This document shows positions 24,518 through 48,397 of a stretch of 64,000 bases of DNA, piece after piece; position 1 is the first letter of the stretch; every line of letters starts with the position of its first letter. Source of the DNA: an uncultured bacterium (GTDB lineage: Bacteria; Patescibacteriota; Minisyncoccia; Phycocordibacterales; UBA918); assembly GCA_950073265.1 (NCBI GenBank), contig CATMPJ010000001.1, forward strand, positions 11,522-75,521. Direction: 5' to 3'. The translations under genes and the position numbers were made by a program. The notes beneath the pieces were generated by a model. It saw only the letters and a list, made by a program, of their open reading frames with translations, was not told the origin of the DNA and searched no databases.

Positions 24518-24588
24518 GCGAGTGTAGTTTAGTGGTAAAACAGCTGCCTTCCAAGCAGCGGTCGGGGGTTCGATTCCTCTCACTCGCA
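24518..24588 (+). tRNA. tRNA-Gly (anticodon UCC), no encoded CCA
   Basis: Acceptor GCGAGTG/CACTCGC, anticodon stem GCTGC/GCAGC, loop CTTCCAA, T-loop TTCGATT. Followed by a terminator. Confidence 0.85.
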
Positions 24589-24597
24589 CAACTAGGT

Positions 24598-24635
24598 AAA
24601 CAAAAACGACGTCATTAATGACGTCGTTTTTGTTT
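24598..24635 (+). terminator. Rho-independent terminator after tRNA-Gly
   Basis: aaacaaaaacgacgtcattaatgacgtcgtttttgttt. Confidence 0.8.
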
Positions 24636-24871
24636 AGAAACTGAACTGCTTCAGTTTAGTGCCTGGTTGTGAAGCGGAGCCATGTATTTTTCTCATTTCC
24701 TAGAGAAAAATAAGGCGAGCTGGGGCAGCTAAGTACTTAGCAAAATCATCACGGAGTGATTATTTTGGTTAGTAACTTGCGCCTACCATGTACTCTTTCT
24801 TCATCAATGAAAATAATTGACCCCTGACCGATTTCCCTCTATTCTCATATTTTTGCTATACTACCAACCAT

Positions 24872-31829: not shown

Positions 31830-32480
31830 TTACTCTAGATTGCGGATTTTATCAATCAATTCTGGAAATTCATCAATCAAAAAGTGATTTTTGTCTTCAA
31901 AGACCATGAATTCGGCTTCCGGCAGCGCTTTAGCGAGCTTTTCACCTTGTTCAAACGGCACCACAAAGTCGTCTTTGGAGTGTGCAATATAAATATGTTC
32001 GATTTTTTTGGCTAAAAGCGGTATTTCTGTGTCGTCATAACCAAAATCGCCACCATCTTCCAAGCTGTCATTGAAAGTAGCGGATGAATTATGAACTGAA
32101 CCCACTAAGAAAAGGGCTTTGACTGTAAACGGTGTCTTGTTTTCAATTAGATACTTGGTGAGAAACATACCTCCTTGAGAGTGACCGATGAGCACTACTT
32201 CCTCATTGAGAAATGTAAAATATCGCTCAAACCAAATCTTCCACTCTTCGTATTTTGCGTTTTGAGCATTGGGCATGGCCGGTTTAATCACCTCCCATTC
32301 TTCACCAAGGTCTTCCTGCAGGTGCTTGTGCCAGCGATTGCTTGGCGCTCGGTGCAGCTCAATCTCTTGCGTCTTTAGATATGAAATAAAGTCATCGTAC
32401 TTCGAGAACGCTTCTCCGCCATGGATAAATATTAGTTGTCTTTTTTTCATCTTTGTTTCTTCAAAATTATATAGAGCCAA
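31830..32480 (-). CDS. Alpha/beta hydrolase (serine hydrolase, GHSQGG nucleophile elbow)
   Basis: GxSxG motif GHSQGG, 216 aa. Confidence 0.7.
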   Translation of the reverse strand: MALYNFEETKMKKRQLIFIHGGEAFSKYDDFISYLKTQEIELHRAPSNRWHKHLQEDLGEEWEVIKPAMPNAQNAKYEEWKIWFERYFTFLNEEVVLIGHSQGGMFLTKYLIENKTPFTVKALFLVGSVHNSSATFNDSLEDGGDFGYDDTEIPLLAKKIEHIYIAHSKDDFVVPFEQGEKLAKALPEAEFMVFEDKNHFLIDEFPELIDKIRNLE

Positions 32481-33043
32481 GGGGTATTTCCAACGGTAAG
32501 CTTTCGTTGATTGATTATTTCATAGCCGTCTGCTATTTCTTCAATATCCCCAAACTCATAAAAGTAAAAGGTTCTTTCTCCAAACGCATCCTTAATCACT
32601 TCCCCACCCTTATATGATCCAAGCTTAACAGATATATAAAAAATACCGTCCTGAGATAAAGATATGTGCGCTCGCTTTAGTATTTGCCGAAACGTCTCCT
32701 TATCTACGTGAAGTAAGGAGGCGAAAGCAAAAATAATATCGACCGGTTCTGCAAACTCGTAGGTTTCTACATCTGCGACTTGGAAATTGACTTCTGGAAG
32801 TTTTTCCCTTGCTAAAGCAACGAAAGATTTTGAAATATCAAAACCGGTATAGTGGTTTGTTTTCTTGCAAATCTCTTCTGCGTCTCTACCGTCGTCACAC
32901 CCAATTTCTAAAACTCTGGGATTAGGTTGCGCATATTCTGCAAAGACTTCGTTAATACAACCGATTCGTGGTCCAATGCCTTGGAACTTTTTTGCATACT
33001 CAATTGCACCTCTGTTGTATGTTTCAACAGTCTTCAGGTCCAT
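32447..33043 (-). CDS. Class I SAM-dependent methyltransferase
   Basis: Motif I VLEIGCDDGRDAEEI. Overlaps the downstream hydrolase gene by 34 nt. Confidence 0.8.
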   Translation of the reverse strand: MDLKTVETYNRGAIEYAKKFQGIGPRIGCINEVFAEYAQPNPRVLEIGCDDGRDAEEICKKTNHYTGFDISKSFVALAREKLPEVNFQVADVETYEFAEPVDIIFAFASLLHVDKETFRQILKRAHISLSQDGIFYISVKLGSYKGGEVIKDAFGERTFYFYEFGDIEEIADGYEIINQRKLTVGNTPWLYIILKKQR

Positions 33044-33046
33044 ATT

Positions 33047-33970
33047 TTAAAAGTAGCCTTTGCGTCTAAACGTAGTAATGACTACTGCCAACAATATGGC
33101 AATGAGAAACATGACAAACCAAAATGCGTAGGGACTATTTTCGAGCGGGAGGGCGACGTTCATGCCGTACAAAGACGCCACAATGGTAGGGATAGTGAGC
33201 AAAATCGTTAGGAGTGTCAGGGTTTTAATCGTGGCGTTTAGGTTGTTGGTGAGAATTGCTTCGGTTGCAGAGCGCACGTTCTGAATGGTTTTCAAAACCG
33301 CGCCCGCTGAATCAACCACCTGTCGATTATCAATCACTAGGTCGTTCATGTATTCCATGTCATCGCTATACATGTGAATATGGTTCCCTTTCGCTATTTG
33401 CTGCAGCGCATTACTCGTTGGGAGCAACGCCGCCACCATGTCATTGAGGCGATGCTCGTACGTCACAAATCGTTCAATCTCCTTGTTACCAATTCGCCGC
33501 AACTGGGCGCGATCTTTATGCACACTGCGGCGCAACGTATGAAGCTGACGCTCAAAGGAGTCAGTAATTGCTTCCATTAGCTGTAAAAAGAGTTTGGTTT
33601 TCTGGGTGGTGTGGACCACTTCTTTGCCTTCTATAAACTGTTTAAACTGTGGCACATCACGTTGCACTACCGTCATCACAAACGACTCCCCCATTACAAT
33701 TAGAAGCGGGGCGGTATCGGTGTCTTCTTTTTGTTCGTTATAGGGATACCGAGTAAAGAAATAGGTGGCGCCTTGTGAGCGCTCCATACGCGGCACCTCA
33801 AAGAAGTCGAGGGCGTCCTCAATTAGATCGGTATCAAGTGCTAATTTCTCAAACAGATTGGTTAGTTCTTCTTCCGATGCTTTCGACACATGAATCCAGA
33901 CACCGGTGCGTATATCGCTAACTTCCTTTAACGCGTCGTCCTTAACCGTTCGAAAATAGTAGGTAATCAT
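33047..33970 (-). CDS. corA: Magnesium/cobalt transporter CorA family
   Basis: C-terminal two TM helices with the YGMN signature (LYGMNVALP). Confidence 0.8.
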   Translation of the reverse strand: MITYYFRTVKDDALKEVSDIRTGVWIHVSKASEEELTNLFEKLALDTDLIEDALDFFEVPRMERSQGATYFFTRYPYNEQKEDTDTAPLLIVMGESFVMTVVQRDVPQFKQFIEGKEVVHTTQKTKLFLQLMEAITDSFERQLHTLRRSVHKDRAQLRRIGNKEIERFVTYEHRLNDMVAALLPTSNALQQIAKGNHIHMYSDDMEYMNDLVIDNRQVVDSAGAVLKTIQNVRSATEAILTNNLNATIKTLTLLTILLTIPTIVASLYGMNVALPLENSPYAFWFVMFLIAILLAVVITTFRRKGYF

Positions 33971-34344: not shown

Positions 34345-34869
34345 TTACAATAAACTTGCGATTTTACGCACCGTATTTACATTTCGTGCGGTCATATTTT
34401 TATATAAATCCGAGCCAATAAAGCCTTTCTGCATATAGCTTTTGCTTTGGAATTTGCGGTTAATTCTCCATATGAGTGCACCTGAAACATACAGCACCTC
34501 ATCGATGTCCTTAACAAAAGGTGTTTCTGATACAACCGTTTTTGTGTCATACTCAGGCCAAAGAAATAAGACGTCCGTCTTCTGCTCCTTATCATTTTGC
34601 CAGTCTTTTGGAATAGCGCTCTCAATCTTTTTAAACTGCCGAGCTGTAAACGCTAAAACCGGCACTGAGAAACAAAATTTCTTGGTAATCGCATTAGTAA
34701 TTTGCTCAGTTTTTTCACTGCTCGATTCAAAAATGACGTTACCAGAGTTGATATAGGTAGAGACATTTTTAAAATTCAAGCTTTCGAATAATTCTTTCAA
34801 CTCGGACATTGAGACCTTGCGCCCCCCTCCCACATTTATCCCACGTAACAACGCAACATACTTACTCAT
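34345..34869 (-). CDS. DUF1697 domain protein
   Basis: N-terminal MSKYVALLRGINVGGGRKVSMSELKELFESLNFKNVSTYINSGNVIF matches the DUF1697 hallmark. Confidence 0.7.
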   Translation of the reverse strand: MSKYVALLRGINVGGGRKVSMSELKELFESLNFKNVSTYINSGNVIFESSSEKTEQITNAITKKFCFSVPVLAFTARQFKKIESAIPKDWQNDKEQKTDVLFLWPEYDTKTVVSETPFVKDIDEVLYVSGALIWRINRKFQSKSYMQKGFIGSDLYKNMTARNVNTVRKIASLL

Positions 34870-34873
34870 AAGC

Positions 34874-35152
34874 CTAAGAATTGACCAGATTTGATATTTT
34901 ACGCGCTATTTCCAAGTCTTTTTGGGTTATTTTATTTCCTTCATCATGGGTAGTGGTCTTAATCTCAATTGTGTTGTAGCCAAAAGTAACTGTTGGATGA
35001 TGGTCACATTCTTCAATTATCTCCACTAAATGAGTGAGGAGAGCTGTCACACCCTGAAAATCTTCGAATTCGAAGCCAGCCACCAATTCTTCACCTTCTT
35101 GGTACCAATCAGGAAATTCGGAAATAAAATATTCAATTTCTTTGCTGTTCAT
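34874..35152 (-). CDS. 4a-hydroxytetrahydrobiopterin dehydratase (PCD/DCoH family)
   Basis: 92 aa with the EECDHHPTVTFGY signature ([E]-x3-H-H-P-x5-Y). Confidence 0.75.
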   Translation of the reverse strand: MNSKEIEYFISEFPDWYQEGEELVAGFEFEDFQGVTALLTHLVEIIEECDHHPTVTFGYNTIEIKTTTHDEGNKITQKDLEIARKISNLVNS

Positions 35153-35225
35153 AGTGTGTAGTATACACTAAACTCAATTATAAACGTTTCACGTGGCACA
35201 CTAGTACGCTGTTCCATATGGAACC

Positions 35226-35651
35226 CTATAAAATAACATTCTCTAGATACTTTATAGTTGCATACTTTTCATGTGGAACCATTCTTACCGCCGCCACATC
35301 GATTTGCCAGCGGCACTCAATCTTATTATTTTCACGTAACCATGAATCAACCACTCTAGATAATTTTTGCATTTTTTCACGTGTGACGTTTTCTTCCGGC
35401 CTCCAAGTTCTGGTTTTCAACGCTCTTTGCAACGATTCTTTTGTTTCATAAGAAACGGTCTTAACCTCAACAAATCTTATTATTTCGTTATTTCCGATAG
35501 TTTCATGTGCAACAATATCGATTTCTCCCCATTTTTTAAGATAATTAGTAGTTAATATGCGAAATTTCTTTCTTTTCAGATAAATTACCGTAATTTCCTC
35601 TCCAAAAGCACCGATCTTATTCTTTTCTCCCTGTTTCAGGCTTTGTTTCAT
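35226..35651 (-). CDS. yraN: YraN family (UPF0102) PD-(D/E)xK-like endonuclease
   Basis: GAFGEEITVIYLKRKKFRILTTNY...GEIDIVAHE...FVEVK motif pattern of UPF0102. Confidence 0.75.
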   Translation of the reverse strand: MKQSLKQGEKNKIGAFGEEITVIYLKRKKFRILTTNYLKKWGEIDIVAHETIGNNEIIRFVEVKTVSYETKESLQRALKTRTWRPEENVTREKMQKLSRVVDSWLRENNKIECRWQIDVAAVRMVPHEKYATIKYLENVIL

Positions 35652-35848
35652 GTGAAATAGACAATATATGTTTCATGTGAAACGTATTTAAGTATTTCAC
35701 ATGGAACTTTTGTGATGATTTTAACATATTTATTGGTGTAATATCCTTGTTTTGTTGTCTTTTATAAAAGACAACAAACTAAAATGTCCTTTATCCCCAT
35801 ATCCACAAGTTTTCCACATAAATGCAAAAGGCCCGCGCTACGTAATCA

Positions 35849-36280
35849 CTACGTTACGGGGCCCTTAACGGGAAGAAGAAAACGATTACTGCACAAACGC
35901 ACAGTGCTCTTGACGGAAACTTGGCTCCAGCCAGCCAGAGAGGCGAGGCCAGGATAGTCCATGCTATCCTTGTCGTCTTTGGGAAAAAGCAAAATTGGCA
36001 TCTGAAACGGGCGTGCCTTGCGAATAAAATCCAATTTCTTGCCCATTGGCTTTTCCAGCTGCGCCTGTTCGAGCAGATATGACAGCTCAGATCTTCCCAG
36101 TAGCTCAAAACCGGCATCATGGACCGCATGGATTGCGTACCTTAGCTGCATGTCTCCGTCTGCGTTAAATCCCAGTCGATGCGCCAGTGTTTTACGAAAA
36201 AACTTGATGCCAACGTCTAGATTGACGGGGGATGTTCCTACGTTGAGAGCAGGAACGTCAATATACGTGATATCGTGCAT
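35849..36280 (-). CDS. Hypothetical protein (143 aa), GC-richer than neighbours
   Basis: ORF followed on the minus strand by a GC hairpin plus T-run (35829..35863). No recognisable family; an R-x4-H dipeptide pattern is present but uninformative. Confidence 0.45.
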   Translation of the reverse strand: MHDITYIDVPALNVGTSPVNLDVGIKFFRKTLAHRLGFNADGDMQLRYAIHAVHDAGFELLGRSELSYLLEQAQLEKPMGKKLDFIRKARPFQMPILLFPKDDKDSMDYPGLASLAGWSQVSVKSTVRLCSNRFLLPVKGPVT

Positions 36281-36542
36281 CCTTCTTTCCTCTCAATGAA
36301 CTGTATTTCAATGTCTTTGACGCGATAAGGAGGAAATTATTACAAAACGGCGTTTGCGGCCACCGGAGAGAATCGTCCCGCAGTTACTAATTCGCCTTGT
36401 CTGTATAGCAGACAAACTCATAAGTACTGCTGGACGCGGCTCGACTGTTTCAGTTTTAGGAAAGGAAACTGAAACATGTCTCCGCCGTTCGATTCTCCAC
36501 GTAAGTGCCGCAGGGCACTCACTCTGGCAGCACCGACAAAAA

Positions 36543-36572
36543 ACGCCTGCAGAAGCAGGCTGTTTTTTGTTC
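36543..36572. terminator. Bidirectional terminator downstream of tRNA-Gly(GCC)
   Basis: aaaaacgcctgcagaagcaggctgttttttg. Confidence 0.75.
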
Positions 36573-36575
36573 CGG

Positions 36576-36646
36576 TGCGGCCAGGGAGAATCGAACTCCC
36601 GACTAATCCTTGGCAAGGACTCATTATACCACTTAACCATGGCCGC
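36576..36646 (-). tRNA. tRNA-Gly (anticodon GCC), no encoded CCA
   Basis: Reverse complement gives GCGGCCA TG GTTA AGTGGTA TAAT G AGTCC TTGCCAA GGATT AGTC GGGAG TTCGATT CTCCC TGGCCGC A. Confidence 0.85.
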
Positions 36647-36650
36647 AATA

Positions 36651-37319
36651 TTAGATTGTCAGGTCTTTTTGCGCCAACTCAATCCATTTCATGAGCTTGC
36701 GCTTCAAAACTGTGCTGCCGATTATAGTATTTCCAACCCCAAAGTGCAACGGGTCTTTGGGCTTTTTCGTCTTCATGTAGTGATTTTTATAAAACTGACT
36801 ATAGGGGAGAGAAGTGGCTGCCTTCCACTTCTTCATACATTTCGCCTCAGACTGTCCTTGATATAGCTGTAGCCAACAGTGAACTTGTTTTTTCTCAACT
36901 CCTAAGTACTCGAGTGCAAACCTGATAAATAACTTGTGGGTAATCAATTCTTTGCTTGATAGACGTATTTGACCCTGATTACTTCCATCACCCTGAGCGA
37001 GATAAAGCATGAGACCCGCTACGAAGAGGGGGTGATTCTTGTAGTGCTTGTATTCAGTCTGTGCAGATCTAACTGTCTCGCGATATTTTTTTTCTCGCTC
37101 GCCCGTACGAGCTTTATTCACCAAACGCAATCGTTTGGCATTTTCTAAGCCAGCCCTACGCTTATTTTGTTTCGTGACATTCTCAGAAAAAGTCTTATTT
37201 TTCAACCATTTAGAGACGGTTGATTTCGAAACATCGCAGATCTTTGCTATCTCCTCAAGCGTAAATCCGCGCCGGCGAAATTCTACTGCTTGCTTATATT
37301 TCTCCTCATTTCGAACCAT
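36651..37319 (-). CDS. HTH domain protein, possible LAGLIDADG-like endonuclease (hypothesis only)
   Basis: N-terminal HTH RGFTLEEIAKICDVSKSTVSKWLK; central segment FVAGLMLYLAQGDGSNQGQIRL loosely resembles a LAGLIDADG motif. Ends 5 nt from the tRNA-Gly 5' end. Confidence 0.5.
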   Translation of the reverse strand: MVRNEEKYKQAVEFRRRGFTLEEIAKICDVSKSTVSKWLKNKTFSENVTKQNKRRAGLENAKRLRLVNKARTGEREKKYRETVRSAQTEYKHYKNHPLFVAGLMLYLAQGDGSNQGQIRLSSKELITHKLFIRFALEYLGVEKKQVHCWLQLYQGQSEAKCMKKWKAATSLPYSQFYKNHYMKTKKPKDPLHFGVGNTIIGSTVLKRKLMKWIELAQKDLTI

Positions 37320-37410
37320 AATGTATATATATAATATACTATTTCTATATGTTTCTTTTACTTATACACAAAGGGCGGCTCATATTTGAGCCGCCCGATA
37401 AGTCTTTTCC

Positions 37411-37527
37411 CTAGCCTCGAATGGCGGTGATGCCCGCGGGGCCGAAATGCCAACAGACCAAGGCCAGTACCAGCACGCAACTGATGATGACCACGGCATT
37501 GGCGCGGTTAGATAGTCTGTGACGCAT
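37411..37527 (-). CDS. Hypothetical small hydrophobic peptide (38 aa) MRHRLSNRANAVVIISCVLVLALVCWHFGPAGITAIRG
   Basis: Strong SD gaAGGAGaaggacATG 6 nt upstream and a terminator hairpin downstream (37377..37402). The ORF-track version 37411..37629 overlaps the cupin gene and is probably over-extended. Confidence 0.3.
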   Translation of the reverse strand: MRHRLSNRANAVVIISCVLVLALVCWHFGPAGITAIRG

Positions 37528-37573
37528 GTCCTTCTCCTTCCACTGTTTAAAATAAGCTACTAATACTTGAAAT

Positions 37574-37858
37574 TCAAGCGTCACCTTCAATTTCTTCTCC
37601 GACAATAACAATCCAACCCTCTGGACCAACCATCGCTGAATGCTTTACACCCACTGGCACATCAAAGCGTTGTCCGGCGGTGACTTCTCTCTTTTCAGCA
37701 GAAAAATCAAAAGTAATTGAGCCGTCGGTCACAAACAAGCTCACCTTGCCCTTATGGGCGTGTTCTGGATAGACAGTTCCGGCTGAATCTTGCCATTCGT
37801 AGACATTAGTAAACCCTTCTTTCTCAAATTGGCGAATAAATCGTTCTGATAATTCCAT
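37574..37858 (-). CDS. Cupin domain protein
   Basis: 94 aa; cupin motifs GTVYPEHAHKGKVSLFVTDG and GVKHSAMVGPEG. Confidence 0.7.
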   Translation of the reverse strand: MELSERFIRQFEKEGFTNVYEWQDSAGTVYPEHAHKGKVSLFVTDGSITFDFSAEKREVTAGQRFDVPVGVKHSAMVGPEGWIVIVGEEIEGDA

Positions 37859-37910: not shown

Positions 37911-38008
37911 AGGTGCCCCAGTCAGTGACACAGAGCGAACGATTTCCAGGGTAGCGGAGATTGCTGAAAAGTTGGAAATGGAATCTGATAAGCTCGCTGA
38001 GGCTTCAG

Positions 38009-38269
38009 TTACAAAGGCGGCTCGTGAGGATTGGTTGCGTCATCGTCGTGCCGCTTAGCCTCACTTCCTGATTCATTTCCTAGTCTTTGATAAGCGCCAT
38101 AAATCAAAGAGAATGGAATCATTCCAAAAATGAGCAGAACGAAGGCTTGCCGAATTGCCATTAGAACGTAGTCGCCGGTTCCATTGTATTCACCACCGAA
38201 GCCGAGGATGAAGACAAAAGCAACAGGAATTGCTGACAAAAATCCGAGAAATATTAGAAAGTACGCCAT
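38009..38269 (-). CDS. Hypothetical small membrane protein (2 TM)
   Basis: 86 aa with two hydrophobic helices and an acidic C-terminus. Confidence 0.5.
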   Translation of the reverse strand: MAYFLIFLGFLSAIPVAFVFILGFGGEYNGTGDYVLMAIRQAFVLLIFGMIPFSLIYGAYQRLGNESGSEAKRHDDDATNPHEPPL

Positions 38270-38403
38270 ATTGATGAAATCATATCACGCTTTTTGAACA
38301 GATATAGCCTCACGAGCACAGTGCGAACAGCAGACAGGGACTAAAACAAGGCTGTCTCAACTTCGCCTCTTGAGTGCAAACAGCCACGCGAACACTCACT
38401 GTC

Positions 38404-38432
38404 AAAAAAACCGCCAAAACGGCGGTTTTTTT
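38404..38432. terminator. Bidirectional terminator downstream of tRNA-Arg
   Basis: aaaaaaaccgccaaaacggcggttttttt. Confidence 0.8.
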
Positions 38433-38460
38433 GAGCTGTTGCTATAGCTGTCCTCTTTGG

Positions 38461-38532
38461 TGCACCCGGAGGGACTCGAACCCCCAACGTCTGATCCGAA
38501 GTCAGATATGATATCCATTTCACTACGGGTGC
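38461..38532 (-). tRNA. tRNA-Arg (anticodon UCG), no encoded CCA
   Basis: Reverse complement gives GCACCCG TA GTGA AATGGATA TCAT A TCTGA CTTCGGA TCAGA CGTT GGGGG TTCGAGT CCCTC CGGGTGC A. Confidence 0.85.
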
Positions 38533-38596: not shown

Positions 38597-40069
38597 ATGA
38601 AAATCTCTCACGCCAGAATCCCTGAGGAAGTCTTGCATGTCACTCAAACTCTAGAGCAGGCGGGCTTTGAAGCGTATCTGGTTGGCGGTTGCGTCCGCGA
38701 TATGGTGCGTGAAGTCGAGCCTAAAGATTGGGATGTAACGACCAATGCCCATCCTGAAGATATTCAAAGATTGTTTCCAGAGCATTACGCAAATAATGAT
38801 TTTGGAACTATTGGGATAAAGACGGAATCAGAAACACCAACCTTGCAGGTTATTGAAGTAACGCCATACCGCAGTGAGAGTGGTTATAGCGACCGTAGGC
38901 GGCCAGATCAGGTTATTTTTGGTGTTTCTTTAGAAGATGATTTGTCCAGACGCGATTTCACCATTAATGCACTTGCATATCGTCCCAAAGATCAAGAATT
39001 AGTTGATTTACATGGCGGAATTACTGATTTGAAGGAAAAAAGGTTGCGCACTGTTGGCGATCCGAAGCGTCGTTTCACTGAAGATGCATTACGTATGATG
39101 CGCGCTGTGCGCTTTTCTGCGCAGCTTGGCTATACAATCGACCCCAAAACCATGGCAGCCATTGCTGAAAATCATGAATTACTAAACGATATCGCGATTG
39201 AGCGGGTGGCACATGAGTTTACGTTACTAATTGAAACAGATGAACCGATGCATGGCATTATTTTCATGCAAAAACTTGGTTTACTGCAACATGTAGTGCC
39301 CGAACTCGAAGAAGGAATCGGTTGCGAACAGGGTGGGGCACACGCGTTCGATGTGTTTGAGCATAATTTACGCACTTTGCAGGCAGCGGCCGACAAAAAT
39401 CACCCAACGCCACTTAGAATAGCCGCTCTATTGCACGATATTGCTAAGCCCGCCACCCGCCGCACTGGTGGTAAAAATAAAAAATATACTTTTTTTGGTC
39501 ATGAAGTAGTGGGGGCAAAGATGGCCAAAAGAATTATGCAGCGCCTTAAATACCCGCGAGAAACGACAGATTTAGTCATGAATTTTGTCCGGTGGCATAT
39601 GTTTTTTGCCGATCCAGACGAGGTAACCCTCTCAGCGGTTCGTCGTACCATCGCTAGAATAGGAGAAGACCATATACAACAGCTTCTAGACTTACGGGTT
39701 TGCGACCGTATTGGCACTGGAAGGCCAAAGGAACAGCCATTTCGGCTCCGAAAGTACAAAGCTATGGTGGATGAAGCTTTGCGCGAGCCAATCTCGGTAA
39801 AAATGCTGAAAATCAACGGGGATCAGATTATGAAACTTTCCGGCGAAAAGCCGGGAAGGCGATTAGGCTTTGTTTTGCATGCTCTCTTGGAAGAGGCTTT
39901 AGATGATGCGAGTAAAAATACCGAAGAATACATGGAAAGACGGGCCCTCGAACTCCTCAAAATGGATGAAAAAACGTTGCAAAACCTGGCTGAAGCGGGG
40001 AAAAAGCGCCAAGAAGAGGAAGAAAGCGCGGCTTTAAAGGAGATTGCGAGAGAACATAGAGTTGGGTAG
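38597..40069 (+). CDS. cca: CCA-adding tRNA nucleotidyltransferase with HD domain
   Basis: Class II NTase head LVGGCVRDMV...DWDVTT, RRDFTINALAY, HD motif LLHDIAKP. Consistent with the window's tRNAs lacking encoded CCA. Confidence 0.85.
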   Translation: MKISHARIPEEVLHVTQTLEQAGFEAYLVGGCVRDMVREVEPKDWDVTTNAHPEDIQRLFPEHYANNDFGTIGIKTESETPTLQVIEVTPYRSESGYSDRRRPDQVIFGVSLEDDLSRRDFTINALAYRPKDQELVDLHGGITDLKEKRLRTVGDPKRRFTEDALRMMRAVRFSAQLGYTIDPKTMAAIAENHELLNDIAIERVAHEFTLLIETDEPMHGIIFMQKLGLLQHVVPELEEGIGCEQGGAHAFDVFEHNLRTLQAAADKNHPTPLRIAALLHDIAKPATRRTGGKNKKYTFFGHEVVGAKMAKRIMQRLKYPRETTDLVMNFVRWHMFFADPDEVTLSAVRRTIARIGEDHIQQLLDLRVCDRIGTGRPKEQPFRLRKYKAMVDEALREPISVKMLKINGDQIMKLSGEKPGRRLGFVLHALLEEALDDASKNTEEYMERRALELLKMDEKTLQNLAEAGKKRQEEEESAALKEIAREHRVG

Positions 40070-41683: not shown

Positions 41684-42928
41684 TTATTGTAGGCCGTGCT
41701 CTTCAAAATTAAACTCGACTCCAAGATCATCCATCATTTGTGAGATTAGTTTTTTTACAATTATTGCACCAATGTCACCCTCGTTAGTAATGATGGTTTC
41801 TTCGTACAATTCATTCTCCAAAGGTCCTATTTCATTATCAAAATACTGTTTTCCAACTGGATTAGGTCTCACAACCGTACATTCGTCGCCATTAACAAAA
41901 CCTGCGGTTACCCTACACCTTACTTTTGAAGCATTTAATATTGCTAGCACTTCGAGACTTTTATTGACATTAGTCTTCATGGCATTGTAGACACTTACCA
42001 GTGGTAATGCATTCTTTGAATAGTAGCTTATCGAGTTTGATATACTCACTATATCTCCGTTTGTAAACATTTGAGTAAAGTCACTAATTTTTCTCACAGA
42101 TTCGTTGCCATTAAATTTAGCCAAAATTACGCCGTATTTATTTGTTACTGGAGTATTTGCAGGGCTTCCGTAAATTAAAGGTATTTGAAATTGATTTGCA
42201 TTAAAGAGAGCTTCCTTGATAGCGATTTTCTTGAGATTGATTTTTTCTTGAGGTTCAATCTTAATGTAGAAATAACTGTCTAAAACTTCAGCAAAGTATT
42301 TTTGATCTTTAATAAGTCCAAAACCCGGGCCTTCTAGTCTCATGAGGGCTTCCTCTTTCTCAAAATAAATGGCAGGTCCATTCAGATCAAGATTCAATCC
42401 TGAATCGGCTTTTTTTTCACCTAAACAGTTTTTTAATACGAACACAAAATTTTCAGTAAGAATTTTCTCAGCCTCCTTCTTTTCACTCGGTGTACTTTGT
42501 TCGTCGAGTGCATACGTAATAGGCCCTCGCTTATGTTTTAAATCAAAAGGAAGATCTTCAATTGAACCAAATTTAGTGTTCATTACCGTAGTAATGTTGC
42601 TGTGACTCAATAGCGAAGTTGCGTAACCCATCTCAATAGCGACGTTCGGGTTCATAATTTTTTTTACTACCTTATCTTCCTTTTTTACTTCAGCGACAGG
42701 AGTTACGTCAGCAATAAAAACACTGCAGTTCTTTATCTTCTTAAAAATAGTATCCGTTATAGGGGGCGAACCAGGCTCGCCTTTTGTGTCATGATCAATT
42801 TCAGCCGTTCTGTCTGAGAATTCAGGTTCTTTGTTAATTTTTTTAATGGCTTTCTCTAAACATTTCTTGATGAAGTGCTTCGAAATGTCTGGATTAATGT
42901 CGCTTTGCCATGACCAAAATATCTTCAT
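41684..42928 (-). CDS. TIR-like domain protein with uncharacterised ~270-aa C-terminal domain (candidate defence protein)
   Basis: N-terminus MKIFWSWQSDINPDISKHF (TIR box-1-like F-x-S-W-x-x-D), later SVFIADVTPV and NPNVAIEMGYA with a conserved Glu, patterned like bacterial IFISWSGE...FEAGAL TIR-like proteins. The gene is AT-rich and Lys-rich relative to its neighbours. The CDS is solid; the function is inference. Confidence 0.6.
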   Translation of the reverse strand: MKIFWSWQSDINPDISKHFIKKCLEKAIKKINKEPEFSDRTAEIDHDTKGEPGSPPITDTIFKKIKNCSVFIADVTPVAEVKKEDKVVKKIMNPNVAIEMGYATSLLSHSNITTVMNTKFGSIEDLPFDLKHKRGPITYALDEQSTPSEKKEAEKILTENFVFVLKNCLGEKKADSGLNLDLNGPAIYFEKEEALMRLEGPGFGLIKDQKYFAEVLDSYFYIKIEPQEKINLKKIAIKEALFNANQFQIPLIYGSPANTPVTNKYGVILAKFNGNESVRKISDFTQMFTNGDIVSISNSISYYSKNALPLVSVYNAMKTNVNKSLEVLAILNASKVRCRVTAGFVNGDECTVVRPNPVGKQYFDNEIGPLENELYEETIITNEGDIGAIIVKKLISQMMDDLGVEFNFEEHGLQ

Positions 42929-47412: not shown

Positions 47413-48327
47413 CTAATTACTATGATACTTTTTATGAACATCCCGAAGGTGCTTGTCAGTAACGTGCGTATACACCTGTGTGGTGCCGATGTTTGCATGA
47501 CCCAAAAGCGCTTGCACCGAACGCAGGTCGGCGCCATTGCTCAGCAAGTCAGTTGCAAAACTATGTCTAATGACATGCGGCGTAACTTTTCGTGTGATAC
47601 CAGCTTGTGCTGCGTACTTTTTAAGTAGTCGCTGCACTGCACGCGGGTGAATGCGCAAGTCGTCGCCTTTTTTTGCTTTATGACCATAACGAATAAAGAG
47701 TGCGTCATCCATGTCTTTACGGTGCATAACATAATCTTTGACCGCCGCCCGTGCACTATCAGAGATAAACACCACCCGAATCTTGTCGCCCTTTCCACGA
47801 ATTGAAAATTCGTCTCGGGTTAAATCAACGTCATCGATTGATAGTGCGCAAAGCTCTGAGATTCGCAGTCCGGTTGAGAACAGTAATTCCAAAATAGCCT
47901 TGTCTCGTTTTCCTTCTAGCTCTTTAGTATCTGGCGCTTCCATCAGTCGTTTGAGTTCTCGAGGAGAGATTAAATCCAAAGATCGCTGTGGGACTTTTGC
48001 GAGTTCAATCCGTTCAGGTGACAAGGCTTCGATACCACGTTTTCGAAGAAACTTGAGAAACGCGCGGACGGCAATCAAGTAATAGTTTTGGGTTCGCCGC
48101 TTCATGGGTTCTACGCGTCCACCCACTTTACTACCAGGCTGACGATTAAGAAATAATCTAAATTCTCGCACTTGTTCTTCAGTAAGATCAGTCGTTTTTT
48201 TAACTTTAGCGAATTCAAAAAAACGTTCTAGATATCGATCGTAGTTTTCAACCGTCTTCACGCTCCGTCCGCGCTCAATCTCTAAGTATTCTAGAAACTG
48301 TCGCTTCAGCTCATGCAAGTCTTTCAT
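47413..48327 (-). CDS. Tyrosine site-specific recombinase, XerC/XerD family
   Basis: N-terminal SAM-like domain ([22 protein letters not shown]); catalytic R...HxxR...Y region ([15 protein letters not shown]). I chose the ATG at 48327. Confidence 0.85.
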
Positions 48328-48397
48328 TACTGCCAGTATACCAACAATGTCGCACAATACATGACTGATCGAGACTGCTCGGGGGAATGGAGACAGG

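Follow-up and report, generated by a model that had tools for sequence, protein, structure and literature searches.

What kind of DNA surrounds the tRNA-Gly(GCC) gene in the genome of a member of Paceibacteria (Parcubacteria, Candidate Phyla Radiation (CPR))? In the 64-kb stretch analyzed here (the window, meaning that stretch at its full length), the gene lies at 36574..36646 on the minus strand (ARAGORN; Rfam tRNA, 65 bits), where an earlier note made from the sequence alone had seen it. That note read the surroundings as a single variable island, holding an orphan gene, a gene for a protein with a helix-turn-helix (HTH) and a LAGLIDADG-like segment, and an inverted partial copy of the tRNA T-arm. 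We found that the region is three separate things and not one island, namely a unit of tRNA-Gly and the gene for the 222-aa HTH protein (HTH222), a module that mimics the tRNA end, and an accessory gene for a 143-aa protein. The best reading of the whole is a conserved operon, then a recombination hotspot. tRNA genes were called with ARAGORN and Rfam, protein families were assigned with Pfam and NCBIfam, and terminators were scanned on both strands. Relatives were scanned with one genome per species, which yielded 70 HTH222 loci. Among the contigs compared, L001–L003 are from the same species, the locus region being 98–99% identical to L001 (GCA_041254555.1, contig JBETAD010000013), while L005 and L081 are relatives at 75% and 82% identity, respectively.

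We analyzed the inverted T-arm copy in relation to the tRNA. Its existence was borne out, with corrected limits: the copy occupies 36485..36500 and not 36489..36504, and the exact run shared with the tRNA is 12 nt and not 13 nt (GTTCGATTCTCC, 36487..36498 on the plus strand). At one mismatch or fewer, the run occurred twice in the 64 kb, in the tRNA and in this copy, where approximately 0.24 chance matches were expected. On the minus strand, the copy reads GTGGAGAATCGAACGG (plus strand, CCGTTCGATTCTCCAC), which is complementary to the T-loop and the 3′ strand of the T-stem, both of the tRNA and of a second element at 36355..36375. This second element, CGATTCTCTCCGGTGGCCGCA, is an imperfect direct repeat of tRNA positions 56–73, from T-loop C56 to the discriminator (CGATTCTCCCTGGCCGCA), so the earlier statement that no direct attachment (att) repeat is present did not hold. 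Both elements belong to a ~180-nt module, termed type A, at 36348..36533 on the minus strand, which matched our covariance model with 101 bits (E 2e-26). Read from the tRNA side, the module consists of the P1 5′ arm complementing the acceptor (36522..36533), the P2 hairpin (36501..36520), the P3 5′ arm, which is the T-arm complement described above, the P4 hairpin (36437..36484), P5 (36376..36436) and the 3′ arm, which lies partly within a terminator-like hairpin at the module end (36348..36365). Between tRNA and module lies a bidirectional intrinsic terminator (36538..36568, stem 36545..36560) found in the terminator scan, with an A-run and a T-run serving the two strands; the same placement was found in relatives. 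The inverted fragment is thus neither an isolated oddity nor a decayed tRNA, but the 5′ arm of a conserved structured module.

The layout was shared across the family. The last ~20 nt of the upstream tRNA gene recur twice, as their reverse complement in the 5′ arm and as a direct copy in the 3′ arm, such that on the tRNA-sense strand the arms pair, imitating the acceptor/T-stem stack and enclosing the conserved hairpins P2, P4 and P5. A covariance model built from 15 copies gave 34 matches at E < 1e-10. When the structure of one copy was laid on the covariance-model alignment, 81.1% of cells were paired, compared to 65.0% after shuffling (0 of 500 shuffles reached the observed value) and 29–41% when partners were slid by 1–3 columns. 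Compensatory changes, with both sides altered, were observed at 47 of the 61 base pairs, and RNAalifold agreed. They included all nine pairs of P2 (96.6% paired) and six of the seven pairs of the main P5 helix (90.1% paired). The window module had a minimum free energy of −82.8 kcal/mol (z −5.9 versus shuffles), and the tRNA-sense strand was the lower in free energy in 29 of the 34 modules (Wilcoxon p = 8e-4). G-U pairs numbered ~42 against ~11 A-C pairs, one conserved P5 pair being G-U in 22 copies. The topology is tRNA-like, with P2 in place of the D and anticodon arms and the T-loop expanded into P4 and P5, and loop motifs of the interior were conserved (UUCCUA in P4, tandem G-A pairs in P5). 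A search of Rfam 15 with the window and eight loci carrying canonical copies returned no module match at E ≤ 1.

These features raise the main rival to the integrative-cassette reading developed below, namely that the module is a functional tRNA-like noncoding RNA, which would arise from the tRNA transcript or through read-through. Such an RNA would carry the acceptor and T stems of the upstream tRNA, with P2 replacing the D/anticodon arms and P4/P5 expanding the T-loop, and could act as a tRNA-specific decoy or as a substrate for enzymes or toxins that recognize acceptor/T-minihelices; alternatively, it could pair in antisense with the 3′ half of the tRNA as the latter matures. The strong covariation over several helices, the G-U pairs and lower free energy on the tRNA-sense strand, the conserved interior motifs and the fit of the arms to each tRNA all point toward an RNA, as does a topology in which the 3′ strand is continuous and the insertion lies on the 5′ strand, as in a tRNA. 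However, an intrinsic terminator stands between the tRNA and every module, leaving no promoter space, and the modules are patchy in presence, stand in arrays of one to three units of differing types and include some degenerate copies. Furthermore, the repeat takes in genomic trailer and terminator rather than CCA, a near-identical block shared by two species (L017 and L077, below) takes in non-structural flanks, and no Rfam family was matched. We regard the RNA as a possibility to be kept in view, at clearly less than even chances.

Known tRNA-like structures, that is, the tRNA-like domain of transfer-messenger RNA (tmRNA) and viral tRNA-like structures, resemble the module in that their 5′ and 3′ ends pair as an acceptor stem continuous with the T-stem and in that the body lies on the 5′ strand. 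They differ in that the module has a long helix and two hairpins in place of the T-loop, encodes neither CCA nor a tag reading frame, and has stems that copy whichever tRNA is upstream. ARAGORN found no tmRNA, and a mini-tmRNA or a conserved P4 peptide was ruled out, no reading frame being kept across copies. A hammerhead-like core in P5 was likewise ruled out, since essential positions differ and the motif consists of tandem G-A pairs. As for the 5′ arm, it is no copy of the 5′ acceptor strand of the tRNA; where tRNA-Pro has its U6·U67 mismatch, the arm has A and so complements the 3′ strand. An origin of the inverted arm by reverse transcription from a primer-binding site was also ruled out because the copies hold genomic trailer and terminator, not CCA.

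Next, we examined how widely the modules are distributed. At approximately 50 of the 79 related tRNA-Gly loci, both the acceptor 3′ strand and the T-arm recurred in inverted orientation (at ~+35 to +55 and ~+50 to +90, respectively), and a direct copy of the last 16–25 nt of the tRNA lay at ~+130 to +220. The pattern sometimes recurred in tandem, in arrays of up to three units. The inverted copies covaried with the T-stem of each species (GGGAG/CTCCC, GGGGT/ACCCC or GAGGG/CCCTC). The covariance model also matched behind tRNA-Pro(TGG) and, more weakly, behind tRNA-Arg(TCG and CCG) at the same loci, and in these modules the arms fitted their own tRNA, with P2 and the interior of the same types as in the Gly modules; the interior of the window module was nearest to that of a tRNA-Pro module. 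A metagenome scan with a P5/T-loop pattern gave many chance matches together with ~20 behind tRNA-Gly(TCC), His(GTG), Pro, Gly(GCC), Gly(CCC), Arg(TCT), Arg(GCG), Cys and Lys, and a few further matches had tails readable as a tRNA-His 3′ end. After CGATT, the scan matches again followed their own tRNA, over 16–25 of 25 nt where scorable. Thus, tRNA-matched arms were found for at least 11 isoacceptors (Gly(GCC/TCC/CCC), Pro, Arg(TCG/CCG/TCT/GCG), His, Cys and Lys). A full-text literature search gave no description of such modules, which apparently form a large, undescribed family behind many tRNA genes of Paceibacteria.

The window itself has a second module of another type. Its tRNA-Gly(TCC) gene (24518..24589) is followed by a terminator and a module at 24598..24847, which opens with the hairpin GAAACTGAACTGCTTCAGTTT, has a core containing GCGGAGCCATGT followed by a hairpin, and ends with CGATTTCCCTCTATTCTCA, a degenerate copy of the 3′ end of tRNA-Gly(TCC). 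The type-A model matched this module partially (17 bits, 24638..24722).

The tRNA-end repeats were then counted in their own right. A 14-nt copy of the tRNA end occurred within 450 nt downstream of tRNA-Gly at 30 of 63 loci, of tRNA-Pro at 16 of 57 and of tRNA-Arg(TCG) at 11 of 51, and upstream at none for each tRNA. The repeats had a median length of 22 nt, and their left edge fell most often at T-loop C56 (34 of 95 copies). Seven of the 95 spanned 54–63 nt, running through the trailer and terminator, and at locus L132 a perfect 54-nt repeat stood on both sides of a 140-nt core. At the tRNA-Pro of L043, we observed a plain partial tRNA duplication without an inverted arm.

Comparison of relatives indicated mobility at such sites. 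Positions 35819..36561 of the window had no counterpart in L005, where 51 bp stood instead, and this supports the earlier note to the extent that the 3′ flank of tRNA-Gly(GCC) is a variable insertion hotspot; the HTH222 gene, which the note had included in the island, does not belong to it. A further case was seen in L017 and L077, two species from one plant, which share a ~330-nt block at 98–100% identity; the block begins at the tRNA-Arg 3′ end, takes in the terminator and module and reaches 60 nt into cca. Their flanking genes are ~75% identical and their tRNA-Arg genes ~90%; a near-identical block amid such diverged flanks points to horizontal exchange, indicating that the module block passed between these species. 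In addition, the window has, directly behind the 3′ end of tRNA-Arg(TCG), a 536-bp segment (37920..38455) that L001–L003 lack. This segment is flanked by GGGTGCACC, which is the tRNA-Arg 3′ end, and GGGGCACC, and holds its own terminator and an open reading frame (ORF) for an 86-aa hydrophobic protein (38009..38269).

No integrase ORF was found within 35819..36573, which agrees with the earlier note for the region itself; elsewhere, the window encodes an Xer-like tyrosine recombinase of 314 aa (47413..48357; Phage_integrase, E 9e-46, with a SAM-like N-terminal domain). This enzyme, encoded ~10.8 kb from tRNA-Gly, is the only tyrosine recombinase noticed in the window, whose ORFs were partly scanned. 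Two core patterns of the module gave no match in viral contigs, and no evidence of a phage-borne attP was seen there.

Direct repeats of a tRNA 3′ end that start in the T-loop are the classic pattern of tRNA-integrating elements. The repeats might therefore be decayed attL/attR scars, with arm fragments, of classical prophages or islands that bore an integrase. The T-loop start of the direct repeats, the plain duplication at tRNA-Pro of L043 and the small ORF in the tRNA-Arg insertion are in line with this explanation. However, random decay would not leave one ~180-nt multi-helix architecture with compensatory changes behind at least 11 tRNAs in dozens of species, remnants of an integrase are absent, and the two core patterns had no match in viral contigs, so scars seem an unlikely source. 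Of the features expected of a tRNA-linked island, the window shows the direct repeat (36355..36375, imperfect) and presence/absence or transfer, but no encoded integrase. The modules resemble tRNA-targeting integrative elements and islands in their insertion on the 3′ side, in the direct repeat from T-loop to 3′ end, in tandem accumulation, in presence/absence among relatives and in small cargo ORFs. They differ from these elements in being only 150–250 nt long and without an integrase, in also carrying the same tRNA end in inverted orientation, in having a conserved fold of several helices, and in that one module interior occurs with arms for many tRNAs.

The explanation that we favour, at about even odds, is that the module is a non-autonomous integrative cassette, recombining at the tRNA T-loop through a folded, single-stranded att-like site. 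The circular form of such a cassette would comprise the tRNA segment from C56 to the 3′ end, the trailer with its terminator, the 5′ arm, P2 and the interior. A crossover in the T-loop would install the cassette's own tRNA end and terminator, pushing the previous copy downstream, and the displacement of earlier copies would generate the direct repeat and the arrays. Once paired on a single strand, the arms would imitate the double-stranded target in an att-like way. The reaction would be carried out by a recombinase acting in trans, one candidate being the Xer-like enzyme (47413..48357), and the 143-aa gene would be accessory cargo in the same hotspot in a few lineages.

This proposal has precedents in integron attC sites and in the attP(+) hairpin of CTX phage, in which arms pair on one strand and so mimic a duplex target. 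Like attC sites, the modules are imperfect palindromes whose outer boxes, an inverse core and a core, pair on one strand; a core repeat stands at every cassette boundary, arrays lie beside a fixed site, folding is strand-specific, and many cassettes have no ORF or carry orphan ORFs. In contrast to attC, the module "core" is ~20 nt of a tRNA gene and not GTTRRRY, its arms vary with the tRNA, and its interior is conserved in sequence where the corresponding attC region is variable. Neither IntI, attI, a Pc promoter nor RYYYAAC...GTTRRRY boxes were seen at the locus, the likeness being architectural only. In attP(+) of CTX phage and of integrative mobile elements exploiting Xer (IMEX), which are acted on by XerCD, two inverted copies of the target ~90 nt apart fold in single-stranded DNA and mimic the duplex target, a host recombinase acts in trans, and tandem arrays form, all of which is shared with the proposed cassette. 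The module differs in that its target is the tRNA T-arm plus acceptor end and not dif, in that no phage genome is involved, and in that the Xer-like role is putative.

Several points weigh against the integrative-cassette proposal. We found no recombinase linked to the modules, nor anything tying the Xer-like enzyme to them, and we saw neither an excised circle nor an empty/filled site pair for a module within one species, the window being the same as L001–L003 here. A simple T-loop crossover cannot give one interior the arms for another tRNA, since segments specific to the tRNA alternate with constant ones (acceptor complement, P2, T-stem complement, interior) and a single crossover cannot re-target such an interior. 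Strong covariation and the G-U bias would be equally expected of a functional RNA, and the strand-biased folding is compatible to the same degree with recombination of a folded single strand and with an RNA. The failure of the two core patterns to match viral contigs counts here as well. Furthermore, the 3′ arm of the window copy is degenerate, and this copy may be inactive. The 143-aa gene has no module of its own behind it, and vertical inheritance with losses is possible for it, as its 51% identity is near the 57–62% of its neighbours.

The accessory gene itself was characterized as follows. The ORF at 35849..36280 on the minus strand encodes 143 aa, has a Shine-Dalgarno sequence and, as the earlier note had it, ends in its own terminator hairpin (35830..35864) followed by a T-run. 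The note had called it an orphan, but an exhaustive HMMER search recovered four full-length homologues at 39–52% identity, where a word-indexed search found nothing, and the gene holds the same slot in distant relatives. The family has invariant residues over its whole length and an invariant C-terminal CS.RF..P motif. Homologues occupy this slot in L202 and L203, making three lineages with the window, and the order there is a tRNA-Gly 3′-end copy or a type-A module (139 bits), a terminator, the ORF and the UPF0102 gene. The gene is missing from L005 and L008; proteins neighbouring it in the window are 57–62% identical to those of L202, and L005, which is equally distant, lacks it. Compared to L001–L003, a single substitution was observed. 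As to the reported GC shift, the gene is richer in guanine plus cytosine (GC) than the window mean (0.498 versus 0.451; 0.535 at third codon positions) and is the GC-richest gene nearby, yet the shift is weak and the gene is no outlier, local 400-nt windows ranging from 0.31 to 0.50. No family was found for the protein in Pfam, NCBIfam, PHROGs, PADLOC or a PDB profile search, and an AlphaFold 2 model from a 5-sequence alignment was unusable (predicted local distance difference test score (pLDDT) 36). On these sequence comparisons, we regard the ORF as a real accessory gene of the tRNA-Gly hotspot, belonging to a rare family.

The third component, the regulator-like HTH222 gene (36651..37319, minus strand), encodes a protein with an N-terminal HTH, a long helix and a C-terminal LAGLIDADG-like domain. 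Homologues fell into 828 clusters, nearly all of 221–225 aa; the 120 best listed were 60–82% identical, and their named sources were Parcubacteria, Kaiserbacteria or Nomurabacteria. In 70 species, the gene occurred as a single copy with its synteny conserved; in at least 63 of them, tRNA-Gly(GCC) lay on the same strand 0–19 nt behind the stop codon, down to 45% protein identity. In the window, the tRNA begins 4 nt after the stop codon, one fewer than the 5 nt noted before. Relatives at 75% and 67% identity retained the order CCA-adding enzyme, tRNA-Arg(TCG), HTH222, tRNA-Gly(GCC), UPF0102. HTH222 and tRNA-Gly(GCC) are a clade-wide core unit and not island DNA; conserved order of this kind was half of what the earlier note had named as refuting its island. 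Because the gap is 4 nt and holds no terminator, the two genes are probably co-transcribed. The AT-rich tract reported upstream was confirmed at 37320..37372 (minus strand), between the start of HTH222 and the terminator of a cupin gene (37373..37396, minus strand, from the terminator scan), and it may serve as the promoter region. In two species, represented by L018 (4546..5240) and L043 (4658..5371), ~700 nt stand between the HTH222 stop codon and tRNA-Gly(GCC), which resembles an insertion on the 5′ side of the tRNA.

The domain assignment of HTH222 held in part. The HTH was confirmed by Pfam (HTH_23, E 7e-10), and in an AlphaFold model built from 54 sequences (pLDDT 89) the segment at residues 99–113, which had been compared to a LAGLIDADG motif, is a helix (97–109) ending at the invariant G110, followed by D111, which is at least 90% conserved. 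In LAGLIDADG enzymes, the catalytic acid sits at the end of the motif helix. By position, D111 would be equivalent to this catalytic Asp. However, no LAGLIDADG-family match was obtained in sequence searches (Pfam and NCBIfam showed only HTH families; a PDB-sequence profile search gave none), Foldseek against PDB returned just weak matches of OmpA-like and RidA-like type, and the secondary-structure elements of the model follow the order a-b-a-b-a-b-b-a, unlike the canonical a-b-b-a-b-b-a. Since no profile detects the fold and the element order differs, we describe HTH222 as LAGLIDADG-like and probably domesticated, a DNA-binding protein in the manner of WhiA and a member of neither family. Like WhiA, it would combine an HTH with a LAGLIDADG-type fold, and it is encoded by a conserved chromosomal gene rather than a mobile one. 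WhiA has two N-terminal LAGLIDADG-like domains and a C-terminal HTH, whereas HTH222 has one such domain and an N-terminal HTH; HTH222 keeps the acidic residue, and WhiA does not. From both WhiA and LAGLIDADG homing endonucleases, HTH222 differs in lacking a sequence-family match and in its strand order.

The same features allow another explanation of the tRNA-end copies, in which HTH222 would be an active single-motif LAGLIDADG homing endonuclease that cuts pseudo-palindromic T-arm DNA, the copies being products of break repair. The LAGLIDADG-like fold, the conserved G-D at the end of the motif helix, the constant adjacency to tRNA-Gly and the near-palindromic T-arm with its central TCGA would be in keeping with such an enzyme. 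Set against them are the missing LAGLIDADG sequence-family match and the lack of Foldseek support, the non-canonical strand order, and a single-copy, syntenic gene with housekeeping-like conservation, which appeared neither in an intron nor in an intein nor as a sporadic free-standing gene in the 70 species. In addition, some of the tRNAs with modules lie far from any HTH222 gene. We consider an active endonuclease very improbable.

Other observations concern the neighbourhood. At 35791..35818 and 35212..35706, three DnaA-box-like 9-mers (one mismatch each) lie beside five TTYCAYRTGRAA palindromes. The palindrome occurs nowhere else in the 64 kb, and some copies fall inside the UPF0102 coding sequence. 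The cluster is kept among relatives, with at least three copies within 2 kb downstream of tRNA-Gly at 47 of 64 related loci (1.94/kb versus 0.05/kb elsewhere). Cumulative GC skew reaches its minimum at 38651, and the genes change orientation at ~38.3–38.6 kb. We regard the region of DnaA-box-like motifs and palindromes beside the HTH222–tRNA unit as a candidate replication origin, and HTH222 might bind the palindromes.

Further along, tRNA-Arg(TCG) (38458..38532) is inverted relative to L005 and L008, and a 94-aa cupin gene (37574..37858) between it and HTH222 is present in L081 and not in L005 or L008. Relative to L001, the window has a single-gene insertion at 32445..33040, encoding a 198-aa S-adenosylmethionine-dependent methyltransferase (Methyltransf_25, E 7.5e-16) between the CorA and hydrolase genes, which abut in L001. 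The CorA gene (33047..33970) differs from that of L001 at 67 codons, 62 of them synonymous, whereas the genes at 34345–37858 differ at 0–6 codons each, a mosaic that suggests recent recombination between strains. Finally, a 414-aa ORF (41684..42928) weakly matched the CAP12/Pycsar effector TIR domain (E 1.2e-4, below the Pfam cut-off) and, by this match, could be a defence gene.

What would these findings mean for the organisms? A broader and more doubtful idea is that tRNA genes of Paceibacteria are integron-like platforms, in which the segment from T-loop to 3′ end would be the attachment site, the modules would be folded, attC-like sites that re-tailor their arms for each tRNA, and small ORFs such as those for the 143-aa and 86-aa proteins would be cassettes, with a host factor (the Xer-like recombinase and HTH222 being candidates) driving the exchange. 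If true, such platforms would be a new, recombinase-unlinked cassette system in very small bacterial genomes. Given its universal pairing with tRNA-Gly, HTH222 is a concrete candidate for a homing-endonuclease fold that has been domesticated and taken on a new role. The modules would be either folded recombination sites of a new kind or a novel tRNA-like RNA, and they explain many of the "partial tRNA" fragments and spurious ORFs that lie beside tRNA genes in the metagenome-assembled genomes of these bacteria. Few mobile elements have been recognized in the tiny genomes of CPR bacteria, and in them this widespread module family would be a main source of small-scale variation in gene content.

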